The notes under the pieces were generated by a model. The model made no database searches. It saw only the letters and a program-made list of their open reading frames with translations, and had not been told where the DNA came from. A DNA stretch of 64,000 nt from a virus (Duplodnaviria; Heunggongvirae; Uroviricota; Caudoviricetes): IMG/VR virus record IMGVR_UViG_2839610755_000002. One strand, 5' to 3'. A program made the position numbers and the translations under genes. Each line of letters opens with the position of its first letter. Position 1 is the stretch's first letter. Of this stretch, positions 38,402 to 43,119 are shown one piece after another.

Positions 38402-38418
38402 AGATTTATTAGAGCAAT
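38402..38418 (-). promoter_or_regulatory. C1 operator-like site
   Basis: Minus strand reads ATTGCTCTAATAAATCT. Confidence 0.55.
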
Positions 38419-38924
38419 TATTGTTGATGAAGAAGCGCATTTTCATACTCCCTGACCATGAATGTAAGTACGCCGTGACTCCTGAACACACGCGCCACTT
38501 CAATCTTATCTTCCAGCGCGAACGCAATTTTACTTAGACCAATTTTCTTCAGGAGATCAATCTTTGCTGGACCGTCATTTCTGTCATCGGTGGCAGGACG
38601 CATAGATAGCAAAGGCTCAGCCCCGTTTGTTACGTACTTCCGCAGCCAGGCTCGTGTTTTATCCCTTGCGATCTCACAGCGCCCGGTTACAAACCAGACC
38701 GTGTAAACGTTAAATAACTGGCGCACCATATCAATAACCGGAGTGATGGGAGTATCGGTGTCACAGGCGAGATTAAACTCGTTCCAGTCCTTTGTTAATG
38801 CACCTTTACCTGGTGGCGGAAGCAAATGCAGTCTGTCTTCAGTTGCCTCTGATATTGTTCCATCAATATCGACTATGACGATATACGGACGTTCCTGGTG
38901 TGCGTGTTTATTGAAAATACTCAA
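38418..38924 (-). CDS. HAD-superfamily phosphatase-like protein
   Basis: N-terminal IVIVDIDGTISE (DxDGT) motif; 168 aa. Confidence 0.6.
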   Translation of the reverse strand: MSIFNKHAHQERPYIVIVDIDGTISEATEDRLHLLPPPGKGALTKDWNEFNLACDTDTPITPVIDMVRQLFNVYTVWFVTGRCEIARDKTRAWLRKYVTNGAEPLLSMRPATDDRNDGPAKIDLLKKIGLSKIAFALEDKIEVARVFRSHGVLTFMVREYENALLHQQ

Positions 38925-38996
38925 ATGCCCTCCTCATTGGACGAAAAAAATGCTGGTGGGCGCACTCCACCAGCATTAAAAGTGACGCTGTAACTA

Positions 38997-40259
38997 TCAG
39001 CGGACGTAAATAGTGCCGCCGTTCTCTTTTTCCCACGCATCGCTACGTGCATAGCAAACATCGAGAAGTCTTCTTGCCGCTGTTTCCTCTAAACCCAATT
39101 CGACAACCAACTGCTCATGACGGCGGGTAACCACATCAAACAGGGTATGCAACCCTTTAGTTGCCAGATCATCAATGAATTCCGGTTCGAACGGCAGCTC
39201 TGCATCTGCCAACATAACCTCTTGCGCCCACTCAACTCGACGGACCAATTCCGGGCGGCGGCTTTCCATCTCTTTACAGATCAATTCATGGAAGAACTCT
39301 ACCCAACCTTCCGGCTGGAACTCGCGGAAAATTGCCAACGGCTGGAAGTTTGGCATCAACCATTCGTTGATTCGGATATCAATGGCATAGCCCATGTCGC
39401 AGCAGAACTGATAAGCAAAGTCCAGCTTAGAAACGATATAAGGACGCTCGTTATTGAACTCTTTAGGCGATGAGATCCCATAAGCCAGGAGGCGCGGGAA
39501 GAAGGAGATTTGCCCTAACGTCGGATGAAGTTTGCTTGCAGGGAAACGGCGCTCAGTAATGCCATACATTTCCTTCTTGAGCGTCGCAAATTTGGCATTC
39601 TCATTAACCAGCGCGGTAACCTCTGCTTTTTTAATAGCAAATGCCACGCGCGCTTCGCTTGCATCTTTAATAGTTTTTTTGAGCTGTTGGTTAAGGTCGG
39701 CGACCTGCTTACGCAGTTCCTGTCGCTCGCTTTTAGCTTTGTTATAGCGTTTCTCAAGGTTAAAAGGATCAAGTTTCATGATCTCTTTATATTGAGATTT
39801 TAGCGTTGAAATCTGTGAGTTCCGCAGTTCAACCATCGCGGTCATTTCATTGAGTTTTGTTTCCAGCTCAATGCTTATACGTTCGGCATTATCAGCACGC
39901 TGGTTGGCGTCATGCGTCGCATCGTCGATCGCGTCCTGTTGCTGGCGTTTCAAATGTTCAATTTGTAGCTGAAGCTCTTCAATTTCTTTACCCTTCAGAC
40001 CGAGATCCAACTGCATATTTTCAGCTGCATCTACCAGGGAGTTATGGCTATCAGCTTCTGCGTTATAAACATCAATAAGCTGTGCGTGAAGCATCTCCGC
40101 TGACTGAACCGCATTATCAAAAAAACGCGCTGTGAGGTCATCACAACTAACGCGGCGTTGCGCGGCCCGGATGTTCTGGATAATGGCCGGGATACCGGCA
40201 TTCAGGACGTCAGGGATAGATACATTTTCGATTGATTGGTTTTGTGCTGAAGTGCTCAT
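38997..40259 (-). CDS. 420-aa protein with long coiled-coil N-terminal half
   Basis: Heptad-rich, Glu/Lys/Gln-rich region followed by a globular C-terminal domain; no motif recognised. Confidence 0.6.
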   Translation of the reverse strand: MSTSAQNQSIENVSIPDVLNAGIPAIIQNIRAAQRRVSCDDLTARFFDNAVQSAEMLHAQLIDVYNAEADSHNSLVDAAENMQLDLGLKGKEIEELQLQIEHLKRQQQDAIDDATHDANQRADNAERISIELETKLNEMTAMVELRNSQISTLKSQYKEIMKLDPFNLEKRYNKAKSERQELRKQVADLNQQLKKTIKDASEARVAFAIKKAEVTALVNENAKFATLKKEMYGITERRFPASKLHPTLGQISFFPRLLAYGISSPKEFNNERPYIVSKLDFAYQFCCDMGYAIDIRINEWLMPNFQPLAIFREFQPEGWVEFFHELICKEMESRRPELVRRVEWAQEVMLADAELPFEPEFIDDLATKGLHTLFDVVTRRHEQLVVELGLEETAARRLLDVCYARSDAWEKENGGTIYVR

Positions 40260-40260
40260 T

Positions 40261-40479
40261 TCAAAGTTCCGTATTAGCTTGTGCTTCGGTCATTTTTCCT
40301 AAGTATGAAGGAGGAAGGACTACGCAATTTGTATCCAGTCCCTCACCTATGGCAGCCTGTAAAATTCTGGCTAAGGTGAGTCTCTTGTTGCGATACCTGG
40401 TGATGACATGCCTGATACCGCCGGTCGGCGTAACAAAGGCGATCAGCCAGTAGTGATATTTCCGTCGGAATGGCCACAT
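40261..40479 (-). CDS. hypothetical 72-aa protein
   Basis: Small ORF directly upstream of the 420-aa gene. Confidence 0.4.
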   Translation of the reverse strand: MWPFRRKYHYWLIAFVTPTGGIRHVITRYRNKRLTLARILQAAIGEGLDTNCVVLPPSYLGKMTEAQANTEL

Positions 40480-40559: not shown

Positions 40560-40560
40560 G

Positions 40561-41262
40561 TTATTCTGATTCTCGCTCAAAAAATGAGCTGACAAGGGGA
40601 AGCCAATCCTCTGACACTTCGCGAGGTCGCGGTTTGCCGTGGAAAAAGATTATTCGGCAGTCTTTTGGTAATGCCCCATTCCCCCTGGAGTAACGCGCGC
40701 TCGCATATTTTGAACCAGGTTCCACAACATCGGCCTTGTAACTTACAAACCATCCTGGATACAGATCCTGAAATGCTGGTGTATCATCGCCCATAACCTT
40801 CCGTAAGAACCCCTGATCACCCCAGCACTCAGTAGTGACACAACGAGAAATCCAACCTTCCGGATCTTGCCAGAATGAACTCCAGATATGCGCTTTAACA
40901 CTATTTGGTATCCACAGGGCACCGCTGCCACGATATTGTGGATGGTAAAAATCCCTAAGCATGGTGAAGCTGGTTGGTGGATGCTCTAGGATTGGGCGTA
41001 TATCACCGGCAATAACCGTGTCCAAATCCAGATAGAACAGATCATCGGTTATATCCGGTCGGAACAACTCGATTTTCGCCCACCAGCCACGGCACTTTTG
41101 CCACTGGTTGATCAATGGGACAACTTTGACGCCAGGTACATGTAAACGCTTCAGGTCTGTCAGGCAAATAATTTCATAGCCTTTTGGCAGTTGATTAACC
41201 AGCCACTGCACATCGGAAGCGTTATAGTCACCACCAGAGCGAAAAACTAAAGCAATCTTCAT
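40561..41262 (-). CDS. hypothetical 233-aa protein (possible DxD-type transferase)
   Basis: LDLDTV and Trp-rich segments; function not established. Confidence 0.5.
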
Positions 41263-41951
41263 GCTGCACCATCACCTTTCACTTTCATCAATGTCAGGTT
41301 TCCGCAAAATACGGCACCAGTGTCGATATACTGCTGATTCCAGAATGTCTTCGGGCTTTTCACCGGAGTGTGACCAAAGATAAAACGATCTGCGCCCGAA
41401 ATTTCGCCACCAATATCATCCATCGAATCACTGATACGCTCGCGCGCCCAGACAACGTTGAAAAGCGGCACCTCCTTACCGAATTGGTATTCATTATCCG
41501 GATAGTCGGCATGGGCTATAACGATAGTTTCTTGCCCGGTGTTCAACTCAATGATATAGGGCAGACGCTTTACCAGCTCCACCAGCGCCCTGGCTAATAT
41601 TTCCTGATCAGTGTCCAGCATGAAGAACCATTGTCCGCCATTCATTAGCCAGTTATTCACGTTGCCATCTGGACTTAACGCATCAATCATCAGCCGCTCA
41701 TGGTTCCCCATCACTGCCCTGAACCAGGGCATCTGCAATAGTTCCAGACATTCGACATTTTCAGTACCGCGATCGATAAGGTCGCCGACCGATATCAGTA
41801 AATCCTGCGCCGGGTCAAAATCCACACGATGGAGTTCGGACATCAGTCTGGTGTAGCAACCATGCAGATCACCAACAACCCAGACATTCCTGTATTTGGT
41901 ACCGTCGATACGGTGATAAATTGTGGGTGCCATCATGTATTCTTCAGCCAT
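41259..41951 (-). CDS. Ser/Thr protein phosphatase, calcineurin-like metallophosphoesterase
   Basis: Motifs GDLHG, GDLIDRG, GNHE in canonical order; 230 aa. Confidence 0.85.
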
Positions 41952-42559
41952 TCTTTAAGAGTCATCTGCGGAATACCTCCCATTTTCCCGCATGAAACAA
42001 CGTCAATCTGTTCACGCGCAGACTGGAATAACAAAGGCAGGTGACTTAGATTTTTTGGCGTGCCGCCGGAATGAACGCGTGGTTCTTGCGTAGCGTCAAC
42101 GCCCACCAGGGCTACATGTTTGAATCCGATATGGAAAGCCAGGTTCAGAGCACCATATGCACTATTGCCGCTGGCAATTTCATTCTCATCTTCGCAAAGG
42201 CCGAAATGTGCGGACCAGCGCCACGCCCACCACTCGGGAGAATTCGTATTTTTTGGCTCCGTGCCGCGCTCAGCCACACGACGGAAGCACAAAACGCCGT
42301 CTCTGACCTCACGTTCTTTAACATCGGGTAGCGCCATGCAATAACAAACACCACGGCGACGGCGGCCACGACCAACGCGCCGCATATTGTCTGGCGATGG
42401 ATCAAGGGTGAAAAAATAAGAAGCGCGGTTAAGCCAGTCGATGGCCCCATTGACCGCTATAATCGGCACTCCGCGCGGCGCAACAAAGTTTGCGGCGCTT
42501 GGGCCACTGCCGACGATAATAACGCGATCACTGCCTCTAAATTTATTCTTGGGAAACAT
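41933..42559 (-). CDS. GSGPS-motif protein, paralogue 1
   Basis: [10 protein letters not shown]...[10 protein letters not shown]; paralogous to the adjacent upstream gene. Confidence 0.5.
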
Positions 42560-43119
42560 TGAATTGCACTGCTCCTACTTGCATTCAAAATATGTAAATC
42601 TGCGTGTTTTTTGCGGGTATCCAGGAACTGCTGTTGCCATTTTGAAATAGACACCTGCGTTGGATTCCGTAGAGCTTGAGGGTGCGCACCATGCCAATGA
42701 AGGCCGTTTTGCAGAGAACAGTCATAGCCGACTAATACCACTACTTCAGCCCCTGATTCAGCCGCCAGACTGATAGCCTGCGCGCCGCTATTTACCCCTT
42801 CCGCCGGTCCACAATATCGCCTGTACTCCAACGAAAATGATTTCGCCGCCGCCAGGTTGGCTGTCACTTTGCGGAACCTCCCTCCCGGTATGGTGGAACC
42901 GTATTGCTTCCACCATGACAAATCACCGGCGTATAAGGCATAAATGTCATCGAACATCTGCCAGGAATTGTTAACCGCGATGATTGAACAGCCAGTTTTT
43001 TCTATAGCAGCACAGTCCTCACGAGTGAGTGACGGACCGCTACCGACACAAAAAACAGTCCTAGTCGCCCTGGGTGGTATGTTCATTCTCAGCTGCAAAT
43101 TCAGCCTCCAGGCGAGCAT
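42457..43119 (-). CDS. GSGPS-motif protein, paralogue 2
   Basis: VFCVGSGPSL...IIAVNNSWQM; same motif spacing as its neighbour. Confidence 0.5.
   Translation of the reverse strand: MLAWRLNLQLRMNIPPRATRTVFCVGSGPSLTREDCAAIEKTGCSIIAVNNSWQMFDDIYALYAGDLSWWKQYGSTIPGGRFRKVTANLAAAKSFSLEYRRYCGPAEGVNSGAQAISLAAESGAEVVVLVGYDCSLQNGLHWHGAHPQALRNPTQVSISKWQQQFLDTRKKHADLHILNASRSSAIQCFPRINLEAVIALLSSAVAQAPQTLLRRAECRL

Follow-up and report, generated by a model that had tools for sequence, protein, structure and literature searches.

The window, a stretch of 64,000 nucleotides, shares 98.4% identity with phage P1; the block studied here is the P1 pmgN-pmgO-pmgP-ppp-pmgQ / pmgR-pmgS / pap region. It holds eight genes, all on the minus strand. 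A preliminary description made from the letters alone had counted five; its genes are real and lie on the minus strand at exactly the coordinates it gave, but pmgN and pmgR had been missed. The block contains the following features.

43260–43276, plus strand: operator Op83 (Oppp), lying between pmgN and its promoter PpmgN (P1 annotation mapped by offset, sequence read directly)
43061–43249, minus strand: pmgN, open reading frame of 62 aa at the head of the operon
42457–43119, minus strand: pmgO, open reading frame of 220 aa
41933–42559, minus strand: pmgP, open reading frame of 208 aa
41259–41951, minus strand: ppp, open reading frame of 230 aa
40561–41262, minus strand: pmgQ, open reading frame of 233 aa
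40543–40559, minus strand: operator Op86a (operator scan, P1 annotation)
40494–40510, plus strand: operator Op86b (operator scan, P1 annotation)
40261–40479, minus strand: pmgR, open reading frame of 72 aa
38997–40259, minus strand: pmgS, open reading frame of 420 aa
38949–38977, minus strand: intrinsic terminator between pmgS and pap (terminator scan), with an 11-bp stem, a 7-nt loop and U7
38418–38924, minus strand: pap, open reading frame of 168 aa
38402–38418, minus strand: operator Op88 (OpmgT), one mismatch to the consensus (scan; P1 annotation), abutting the pap stop

These genes form at least two C1-repressed transcription units. Scanning for the C1 operator consensus with a tolerance of 3 mismatches gave 18 matches in the window, against 0.22 expected; Op83 has 4 mismatches and was therefore missed. 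Through Op83 the pmgN-O-P-ppp-Q operon is under prophage repression. The Op86 pair, absent from the preliminary description, divides the block in its middle into separate operons; promoter PpmgR accompanies it (40494–40559), and the second transcription unit begins here. C1 operators had been proposed at both ends of the block. Both sites are real, but the one at the pap end, Op88, regulates the downstream pmgT operon according to the P1 annotation, not the pmgN-pap block. The RNA fold of the pmgS-pap terminator has an MFE of −22.9 kcal/mol (z −2.8), and 0 of 200 shuffles were as stable. Split by the Op86 operators and this terminator, and with ppp and pap facultative, the block is a mosaic rather than the single enzyme cluster first described.

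The motifs from which the enzymes had been recognized are all present in the translations: DIDGT in Pap; GDLHG, GDLIDRG and GNHE in Ppp; VGSGPS...IIAVN common to PmgO and PmgP; and LDLDT in PmgQ. Both phosphatase calls were upheld. Ppp is a full-length orthologue of the lambda Ser/Thr phosphatase NinI (PDB 1G5B, E 3e-95), matching it end to end with all metallophosphoesterase motifs; it also matches Metallophos (PF00149) and PrpA/PrpB-like families, and is similar to ApaH and to the phosphatase domain of bacterial Pnkp. Ppp and NinI are each non-essential in their phage, but NinI is encoded in the nin region whereas ppp lies inside a glycosyltransferase operon, joined to pmgP and pmgQ by ATGA overlaps (junction sequences read). 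Divergent P1-like elements (L122, L124, L127, L132 and L134) lack ppp, with pmgP overlapping pmgQ directly, and still keep O-P-Q-R-S, which makes ppp a facultative passenger. Pap, a phosphatase of HAD/PNKP type, scores 46.5 bits against PF25109 (HAD_PNKP; cut-off 27.6), is placed in phrog_415 (polynucleotide kinase), and matches the Capnocytophaga Pnkp1 phosphatase domain (4XRP) with E 0.001. It shares PF25109 and the DxDxT motif with that domain and with T4 Pnkp, DIDGT being motif I; unlike them it is a stand-alone domain behind a terminator, without a kinase domain, and no kinase or ligase partner was detected in the block. We found pap in just one related locus among those examined. Both ppp and pap are facultative accessory genes, independent passengers.

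PmgN belongs to phrog_2350, a family of unknown function, and has been found essential by CRISPRi yet dispensable by deletion. pmgR is a head-completion gene: its published deletion leaves heads and tails unjoined and is complemented in trans, and what follows pmgQ in other phages is a gene for a head-tail connector or head-completion protein. It is the only gene of the block without a viable published deletion. PmgS has an N-terminal coiled coil (about residues 60–220) and a C-terminal domain for which no relatives were detected, in the PDB or elsewhere; its matches are to SMC-type coiled coils only, and weak coiled-coil matches of PmgS were all that PADLOC returned. It is 25–27% identical in the divergent P1-like elements, non-essential, and not on the virion proteome list. 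Published in-frame deletions of pmgN, pmgO, pmgP, ppp, pmgQ, pmgS and pap give normal plaques and normal anti-restriction against EcoA, EcoB and EcoK, and all of these except pmgN are also non-essential by CRISPRi. The block is not made up of genes with established morphogenetic roles in P1, as the preliminary description had considered possible; "pmg" means only putative.

PmgO and PmgP had been called paralogues and left without assignment. By BLASTP they match weakly (E 0.004, N-terminal 36 aa only); profile-profile comparison makes the relationship firm (98.1% probability, E 1e-13, 163 columns), and the two are true distant paralogues. They can be assigned by fold and by their glycan-assembly contexts: both have the transferase fold of Maf, Cst, WaaZ and MptE (DUF115), with P1 PmgO and PmgP themselves scoring under the Pfam DUF115 threshold. 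Maf is the best match, over the longest alignment, and the GPS, N and SG...GxD motifs line up with Cst-II in the profile. Maf (motility-associated factor) proteins, flagellin glycosyltransferases such as Magnetospirillum Maf (PDB 5MU5), are about 600 aa with extra domains, whereas PmgO and PmgP are bare paired cores of ~200 aa, with a sequence identity of 16%; the sequence match to the Campylobacter GT42 enzymes Cst-I and Cst-II is not significant (E 0.12 or worse). PmgO, already labelled "alpha-2,3-sialyltransferase" in RefSeq, is a single-domain DUF115 transferase-like protein; its residues 1–16 are disordered and missing in homologues, so translation probably starts at M12. PmgP carries a Trp-rich insertion and is the best conserved of the O/P/Q trio (328 homologous clusters; 59–67% identity in divergent P1-like elements). 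A natural PmgO-PmgP fusion exists (P0051), along with four other tandem two-domain proteins.

The possible DxD transferase of the preliminary description is PmgQ, a compact retaining glycosyltransferase of GT8 fold that carries DLDT (DxD) and C-terminal FHGxPRP motifs. RefSeq already labels it "glycosyltransferase"; no Pfam family matched it, Glyco_transf_8 included. At 233 aa it is smaller than LgtC, glycogenin, the Skp1 alpha-galactosyltransferase Gat1 and GlyE, to which it is 13–17% identical, and LgtC, an LOS enzyme, matches it as well as protein glycosyltransferases do. PmgO, PmgP and PmgQ have no transmembrane segments.

Dozens of unrelated phages and prophages from Gram-negative bacteria carry the three genes together, and where a locus has enough flank they nearly always co-occur. 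The hosts found span Gamma-, Alpha- and Betaproteobacteria, Bacteroidota and Gemmatimonadota, all diderms; many of the loci sampled may stem from related lineages, and context is guilt by association. No such co-occurrence with O-P-Q holds for ppp, pmgR, pmgS and pap, and across P1-like elements conservation is far higher for PmgO, PmgP and PmgQ than for PmgR or PmgS. The slot of ppp is filled elsewhere by FkbM-type and class-I SAM methyltransferases or by a third GT-A-like gene; in one PmgO-like protein the fusion partner is a TylF-type O-methyltransferase. A 197-kb phage contig carries PmgP and PmgQ within an island of GT4, GT2, GT25-like and GT32-like transferases and a UDP-GlcNAc 2-epimerase. 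The module is usually embedded in a head-gene cluster, and often its position is just behind the major capsid gene: it is directly 3′ of an HK97-type capsid gene in L016 (a Zhongshania guokunii prophage), L110, L116 and L128, followed in L128 by a gp6-like connector. In L117, L119, L017 and L162 it comes after portal or terminase, and in L133 and L137 it flanks a head-completion-domain gene on both sides. In L003, L004, L021 and L123 it sits beside lysis genes, where morons that modify the cell surface are typically found. The O, P and Q genes of Pseudescherichia chromosomes are interspersed with those for three Big_1 Ig-like surface proteins, and a PmgO-like protein fused to Big_1/Big_13 domains also exists.

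We tentatively propose, as a serious possibility, that the conserved core pmgO-pmgP-pmgQ forms a soluble cytoplasmic cassette for glycosylating a protein, possibly one of the virion. PmgO and PmgP would be paralogous single-domain transferases working as a pair, and PmgQ a DxD-dependent retaining hexosyltransferase. Drawing on nucleotide sugars of the host, the three would place a short glycan on the acceptor; in relatives, extra enzymes would methylate or extend this glycan further. As acceptor we infer a protein to be likeliest: for phages probably one of the virion (head), and for the chromosomal islands probably a Big_1 Ig-like adhesin. Because the cassette carries no sugar-biosynthesis genes and, to our knowledge, CMP-Kdo is the sole CMP-activated ulosonic acid of E. 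coli K-12, the likeliest donors would be CMP-Kdo for PmgO and PmgP and a UDP-hexose for PmgQ; unlike for Maf, the donor in K-12 cannot be pseudaminic or legionaminic acid. In P1 the C1-repressed promoter PpmgN drives the cassette, which is therefore silent in the lysogen and active for the whole of lytic growth. Laboratory dispensability fits a decoration function. Against a virion acceptor, the P1 cassette is not adjacent to the capsid gene and is under an early C1-controlled sigma-70 promoter, not a late promoter (P1 annotation). The published P1 virion proteome notes neither these proteins nor any glycopeptide, and no glycan on P1 virions is reported in the literature, a recent cryo-EM paper included. 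Virus-encoded virion glycosylation has precedents in mycobacteriophages Che8 and Rita, whose glycans are on the major capsid protein, and in chlorovirus PBCV-1 (A64R). Those systems use other enzyme families with no DUF115 pair reported, and the module's hosts here are Gram-negative; no glycan has been reported for P1 or any other phage with the module.

The main rival, which we judge unlikely, is remodelling of LPS or envelope glycolipid, with WaaZ-like PmgO and PmgP adding Kdo to the inner core and PmgQ acting like the GT8 core enzymes WaaO, WaaJ or LgtC. The LPS core is the P1 adsorption site, and CMP-Kdo is the sole K-12 CMP-ulosonate, both of which favour it. If it held, the receptor would be masked or truncated in lytic growth, reducing superinfection or the loss of progeny on debris. 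The restriction to diderms, the loci beside lysis genes and early C1-controlled expression, which suits a cell-surface change, agree with this. WaaZ itself is a borderline DUF115 member (PF01973, E 7e-7), and the PmgP half of P0051 has a faint precomputed match to PF27901 (WaaZ_KDO_III); direct hhalign comparison of PmgO/PmgP with WaaZ, the E. coli LPS Kdo III transferase, is nonetheless weak (9–15% probability). Addition of Kdo III by WaaZ goes with outer-core truncation (Frirdich 2003). Most non-P1 loci, however, lie in late head-gene operons, where an LPS change would come too late and never be expressed in lysogens. Cst-I, Cst-II and WaaZ act on LOS or LPS, whereas the Big_1 association and the Ig-like fusion point to protein acceptors; the deletions also have no reported plaque phenotype.

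The preliminary description itself found a cluster of phosphatases and nucleotide-modifying enzymes for host takeover or anti-defence plausible. Coordinated in this way, Ppp might for example reverse kinase-based defence signalling, or Pap and Ppp heal RNA or DNA ends. The genes are all early, C1-repressed, non-essential accessories, and Ppp (a bona fide lambda-type phosphatase with ApaH/Pnkp-domain similarity) and Pap (a PNKP-type 3′-phosphatase domain) would suit such roles. We consider it improbable: ppp and pap are sporadic, the latter set apart by the terminator, no kinase or ligase partner was detected in the block, PADLOC offers only PmgS coiled coils, and O, P and Q are glycosyltransferase-like rather than nucleotide-modifying. 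Neither an anti-defence nor a nucleotide-modifying role finds support; plaques and anti-restriction are normal in the deletion mutants. That PmgO and PmgP are small-molecule pyrophosphokinases of MptE or thiamine-pyrophosphokinase type is very improbable given the Maf match, the Cst-II motif alignment, and the invariable GT8 partner, often with sugar methyltransferases and other glycosyltransferases. We give similarly little credence to structural or chaperone morphogenetic proteins, or to enzymes glycosylating phage DNA. The historical pmg annotation, the adjoining pmgR required for head completion and the head-gene contexts elsewhere suggest the former, and DNA-hypermodifying phage glycosyltransferases do exist (preprint). 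Against these stand the enzymatic folds, the normal plaques, absence from the virion proteome, unchanged anti-restriction, and the lack of a 5hmC or 5hmU pathway partner within the module in the loci examined; P1 DNA is, moreover, a standard restriction substrate.

On the glycosylation reading, pmgOPQ may glycosylate a phage or surface protein, by a module conserved beside head genes in many unrelated phages.

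Over the 5.5 kb around the block, identity is 98.4% to bacteriophage P1 and 98–99% to other P1-like phages, and the feature itself was already known and annotated in P1. We mapped the annotated P1 record onto the window and combined it with ORFs, obtaining eight minus-strand genes where the preliminary description had counted five; the motifs quoted there were all found in the translations. The genes, and the C1 repressor operators among them, are as follows.

43061–43249, minus strand, pmgN
42457–43119, minus strand, pmgO
41933–42559, minus strand, pmgP
41259–41951, minus strand, ppp
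40561–41262, minus strand, pmgQ
40261–40479, minus strand, pmgR
38997–40259, minus strand, pmgS
38418–38924, minus strand, pap
43260–43276, C1 operator Op83 (sequence reading and P1 annotation; four mismatches)
40543–40559, C1 operator Op86a
40494–40510, C1 operator Op86b
38402–38418, C1 operator Op88

Plus-strand ORFs of the block were short and without support, and an Rfam scan of both strands of 37500–44500 found no RNA family. The first 141 bases of our query (38000–38141) had no match to P1, yet matched other P1-like phages. The pmgT region also departs from the P1 reference, since two shorter ORFs of 101 aa (37918–38223) and 154 aa (37503–37967) stand in place of the 310-aa pmgT of P1. 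Directly upstream of the block, pmgM (43283–43861) gave a VRR-NUC nuclease-domain signal (E 3e-4) of 21.1 bits, slightly below the Pfam cutoff of 23.8; pmgM was present beside the pmgO, pmgP, pmgQ, pmgR and pmgS genes in all P1-like elements examined.

A consensus scan found 18 C1 operator-like sites in the window, versus 0.22 expected. From the operators at the Op83, Op86a/b and Op88 positions, the block comprises at least two C1-repressed units, one running from PpmgN/Op83 through pmgN, pmgO, pmgP, ppp and pmgQ, the other from PpmgR/Op86 through pmgR and pmgS; Op88 is the operator of the next operon, pmgT. Between pmgS and pap, within 38925–38996, is a canonical intrinsic terminator (11-bp stem and U7, −22.9 kcal/mol; no shuffled sequence folded equally well). 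With operators at three positions and this terminator, the block is not a single C1-controlled operon. The earlier view of one enzyme cluster was thus right in its enzyme-like calls but not in treating the genes as a unit. On the 3′ side of the terminator are a good Shine-Dalgarno sequence, GAGGAGGG, and then the TTG start of pap, which must be expressed by read-through or from an unannotated promoter.

ATGA stop/start overlaps join the reading frames of pmgP, ppp and pmgQ. Similarity to the lambda phosphatase begins at Ppp residue 11, and codon 6, an ATG, overlaps the stop of pmgP as ATGA (41936–41951); this downstream ATG is probably the true ppp start, in which case translation would be coupled from pmgP through ppp to pmgQ. 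Two other annotated overlaps are unusually long, 103 nt for pmgO/pmgP (42457–42559) and 59 nt for pmgN/pmgO (43061–43119). PmgO residues 1–16 are disordered in the structural model and missing from homologues, which begin near M12, and the last ∼17 residues are poorly conserved; the annotated ends of pmgO are probably too generous.

Published in-frame deletions of pmgN, pmgO, pmgP, ppp, pmgQ, pmgS and pap leave the phage viable, and its anti-restriction stays normal on EcoA, EcoB and EcoK hosts. The sole lethal deletion of the block is that of pmgR, which leaves heads and tails unjoined. A CRISPRi screen agreed with the deletions except at pmgR, which it missed, and pmgN, which it scored essential; simple polarity cannot explain the pmgN mismatch, because knock-downs of the downstream pmgO, pmgP, ppp and pmgQ had no effect. 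The virion LC-MS/MS list contains none of the block's proteins. “Putative morphogenetic function” is thus a name and not a finding, and the outcome that would have overturned the preliminary description, established morphogenetic roles for all the genes, did not hold.

We ran HMMs of all P1 block proteins on the loci that the PmgP profile had retrieved. In the scan of viral contigs, an initial PmgP profile gave only near-identical P1 copies, and a divergent lead sequence was then used. PmgO, PmgP and PmgQ occurred together in almost all loci whose flanks were long enough, in Enterobacterales, other Gammaproteobacteria, Alpha- and Betaproteobacteria, Bacteroidota and Gemmatimonadota. Among the loci searched, ppp, pmgR, pmgS and pap were confined to P1-like elements. 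Five divergent P1-like elements have the order pmgM-O-P-Q-R(-S), with pmgP overlapping pmgQ directly and no ppp, which marks ppp as a facultative insertion. Across such elements identity was 59–67% for PmgP, 51–58% for PmgQ and 44–52% for PmgO, versus 29–38% for PmgR and 25–27% for PmgS. Judged by these identities, the stronger conservation of PmgO, PmgP and PmgQ indicates selection in nature despite their dispensability in the laboratory.

PmgO and PmgP, which share a GSGPS motif, had been described as paralogues. BLASTP aligned them over only 36 residues (E 0.004), but profiles of their homologues, with an O-P fusion protein left out of the PmgO alignment, matched over 163 columns at 98.1% probability (E 1e-13), bearing out the description and identifying them, at the level of sequence profiles, as genuine, old paralogues. 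Both have the Rossmann-like fold of Maf, MptE and Cst, with an N-terminal GxGPS loop. They score below the 34.6-bit gathering threshold of PF01973 (DUF115/MptE-like), PmgO at 23.4 and PmgP at 20.9, but several homologues pass it. One of these is P0051 (376 aa, 44.6 bits), a natural PmgO-PmgP fusion from a phage unrelated to P1, where the next gene encodes a PmgQ homologue (40% identity, E 2e-42). Four further tandem two-domain DUF115 proteins were among the top members of the PmgO family, which numbers 7682 cluster representatives at E 0.001 or better.

The PmgP profile matched nothing in the PDB by sequence. Similarity to the GT42 enzymes Cst-I/II was not significant (profile versus PDB, E 0.12–0.58), and E. 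coli K-12 makes no CMP-Neu5Ac, so the RefSeq/PHROG label “alpha-2,3-sialyltransferase” holds at the level of fold only. Maf flagellin glycosyltransferases are multi-domain proteins of ∼600 aa, whereas PmgO and PmgP are single domains of ∼200 aa; moreover, no flagellar or NeuB/NeuA-type genes were found among the Pfam-scanned neighbors in any locus.

In modules adjacent to capsid genes, the PmgO-like gene encodes only 125–145 aa, beginning at an AGDxxWW motif and so without the GSGPS...AVN nucleotide-binding segment. Short ORFs of this PmgO region were mapped in five loci from other genomes or contigs, with coordinates local to each.

L016 (Zhongshania guokunii prophage), 6573–7010
L110, 5366–5803 and 5061–5357
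L133, 4980–5393 and 4669–4956
L137, 872–1285
L128, 5719–6096

Just upstream of the short PmgO gene in L110, L112, L133 and L137 is an ORF of ∼95–99 aa whose product has a stretch rich in S/T/P and a basic tail resembling KRRRGRPRR; by BLAST, these ORFs between the capsid gene and PmgO did not form a single family. In those phages the short PmgO may partner PmgP without being catalytic itself, or the gene may be split in two.

The third member of the module, PmgQ, has a GT-A fold and a DxD metal/nucleotide-sugar motif, as expected of a GT8 enzyme; against Pfam it matched no family at E 0.1 or better, Glyco_transf_8 included. Ppp is an end-to-end orthologue of the lambda protein phosphatase (residues 11–229 against 3–221 of 1G5B, E 3e-95), scoring 59.5 bits to PF00149 (cutoff 21.5) with GDxHG, GDxxDRG and GNHE motifs present. 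Pap has a HAD phosphatase domain of the PNKP type (PF25109, 46.5 bits, cutoff 27.6; DIDGT present; E 0.001 to the Pnkp1 phosphatase domain), but differs from PNKP in standing alone: its 168 aa match only the phosphatase part of the profiles, and it has no P-loop 5′-kinase domain. In PmgS, an N-terminal coiled coil was the only recognizable feature. NCBIfam gave no match for PmgO, PmgP, PmgQ, PmgR, PmgN or Pap, and no transmembrane segment was found in any of the block's proteins. Base composition did not mark ppp and pap as recent imports. The suggestion that the cluster serves host takeover or anti-defense gained no specific support, PADLOC returning only coiled-coil noise for the block's proteins, and is now limited to the two facultative phosphatases, Ppp and Pap.

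Where P1 has ppp, other loci carry methyltransferases (class-I SAM or FkbM-type) or a third GT-A-like protein, and a TylF/Methyltransf_24 O-methyltransferase domain occurs fused to one PmgO-like protein. On a 197.6-kb viral contig (IMGVR_UViG_3300013121_000029; locus L135, 457–8204), PmgP and PmgQ lie inside a glycosylation island that also encodes a UDP-GlcNAc 2-epimerase and transferases of the GT4, GT2 (three copies), GT32-like and GT25-like types; a search beside the module there for CMP-sugar biosynthesis genes (NeuB/NeuA/KdsB type) turned up nothing but this epimerase. A calcineurin-like phosphoesterase is encoded a few genes away. By gene content, the company the module keeps is that of glycan assembly, which counts against a pyrophosphokinase function that the fold alone would permit.

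In about two-thirds of the sampled non-P1 lineages, the module is in or against the head-gene cluster. In four loci (L016, L110, L116, L128), terminase, portal, protease and then an HK97-type major capsid gene lead directly into the module, after which come genes for the head-tail connector, head completion and the tail. In two (L133, L137) the module encloses a gene with a head-completion domain; it is preceded by a portal or terminase gene in four (L117, L119, L017, L162), and is near MuF, portal or terminase genes in several more. In P1-like elements the head-completion gene pmgR always follows pmgQ, which echoes the order of pmgQ and then connector or head-completion genes elsewhere. No publication in our literature searches connected DUF115 proteins with the head-gene clusters of phages. 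Four other loci (L003, L004, L021, L123) have the module beside lysis genes.

A second association is with Ig-like surface proteins. In Pseudescherichia chromosomes pmgO, pmgP and pmgQ homologues are interleaved with genes for three Big_1 proteins: an inverse autotransporter (1178 aa, seven Big_1 domains), a Big_1/RCC1 protein (999 aa) and a further Big_1 protein (494 aa). This layout was mapped as follows.

L010 (Enterobacteriaceae MAG UBA7338), 281–13419, Big_1-interleaved island; same layout in L011–L014 (Pseudescherichia)

We regard this chromosomal island as a candidate phage-independent adhesin-glycosylation locus. A PmgO copy in Serratia lies directly next to two Big_1 proteins, and one PmgO-like protein is itself fused to Big_1/Big_13 domains.

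We tentatively read pmgO-pmgP-pmgQ as a cytoplasmic cassette for glycosylation of proteins, including virion proteins, and give this a little less than an even chance. The paired DUF115 transferase (PmgO/PmgP) and the GT8 hexosyltransferase (PmgQ) would draw on host nucleotide sugars. The acceptor would most likely be a protein, which in phages would belong to the virion (head) and in the chromosomal islands would be an Ig-like adhesin. Because the module has no sugar-activation genes of its own and CMP-Kdo is the only CMP-ulosonic acid of K-12, CMP-Kdo would be the most economical guess for the PmgO/PmgP donor. Against virion glycosylation in P1 itself we count the early expression of the cassette, its position away from the capsid gene, and published work on P1 particles, structural studies included, that reports no glycan.

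The main alternative is that the cassette remodels the LPS core in the manner of WaaZ. The LPS core is the P1 receptor, WaaZ-type addition of Kdo III accompanies outer-core truncation, and the fusion protein P0051 has a faint precomputed match to WaaZ_KDO_III (PF27901). Direct comparison was too weak to be decisive, however, with hhalign of the PmgO and PmgP families against the single E. coli WaaZ sequence reaching 9–15% probability, and a cell-surface function is hard to square with location in late head operons. We consider LPS remodeling unlikely; minor alternatives share the remaining probability.

The protein-glycosylation reading can be extended, more doubtfully, to a widespread and unrecognized virion-glycosylation system in tailed phages of Gram-negatives, of which pmgO-pmgP-pmgQ would be the P1 member. 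The DUF115 pair would possibly attach Kdo to protein, to our knowledge a previously undescribed modification, and the GT8 enzyme would join in decorating the head or other, Ig-like surface proteins. What is new here, as a testable hypothesis from comparative genomics, is the view that these genes form a conserved glycosylation cassette, widespread in phages and associated with head genes and Ig-like proteins. One paper describes phage particles as not typically glycosylated, and the only phage examples met in the literature consulted are mycobacteriophages, whose glycan shield alters antibody recognition. A virion-glycosylation system of the Che8 type would require a glycan joined covalently to a virion protein through phage glycosyltransferases; the tie of our module to the virion is one of genomic association.

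The question of target would be cheap to settle, since in-frame P1 deletion mutants already exist, and the answer would supersede two labels now spreading in databases, the uninformative “putative morphogenetic” and the misleading “sialyltransferase”. If the target is LPS, P1 would have a receptor-masking function hitherto unnoticed. If instead the module decorates virion or surface proteins, there would be consequences for immune clearance and mucus binding in phage therapy, for phage display and for delivery vectors based on P1, and a possible protein-Kdo transferase could find use in glycoengineering. Glycosylated virions would in that case be common among phages of Gram-negatives, the PmgO family alone having thousands of members, and the classic phage P1 would bear glycans overlooked for decades.
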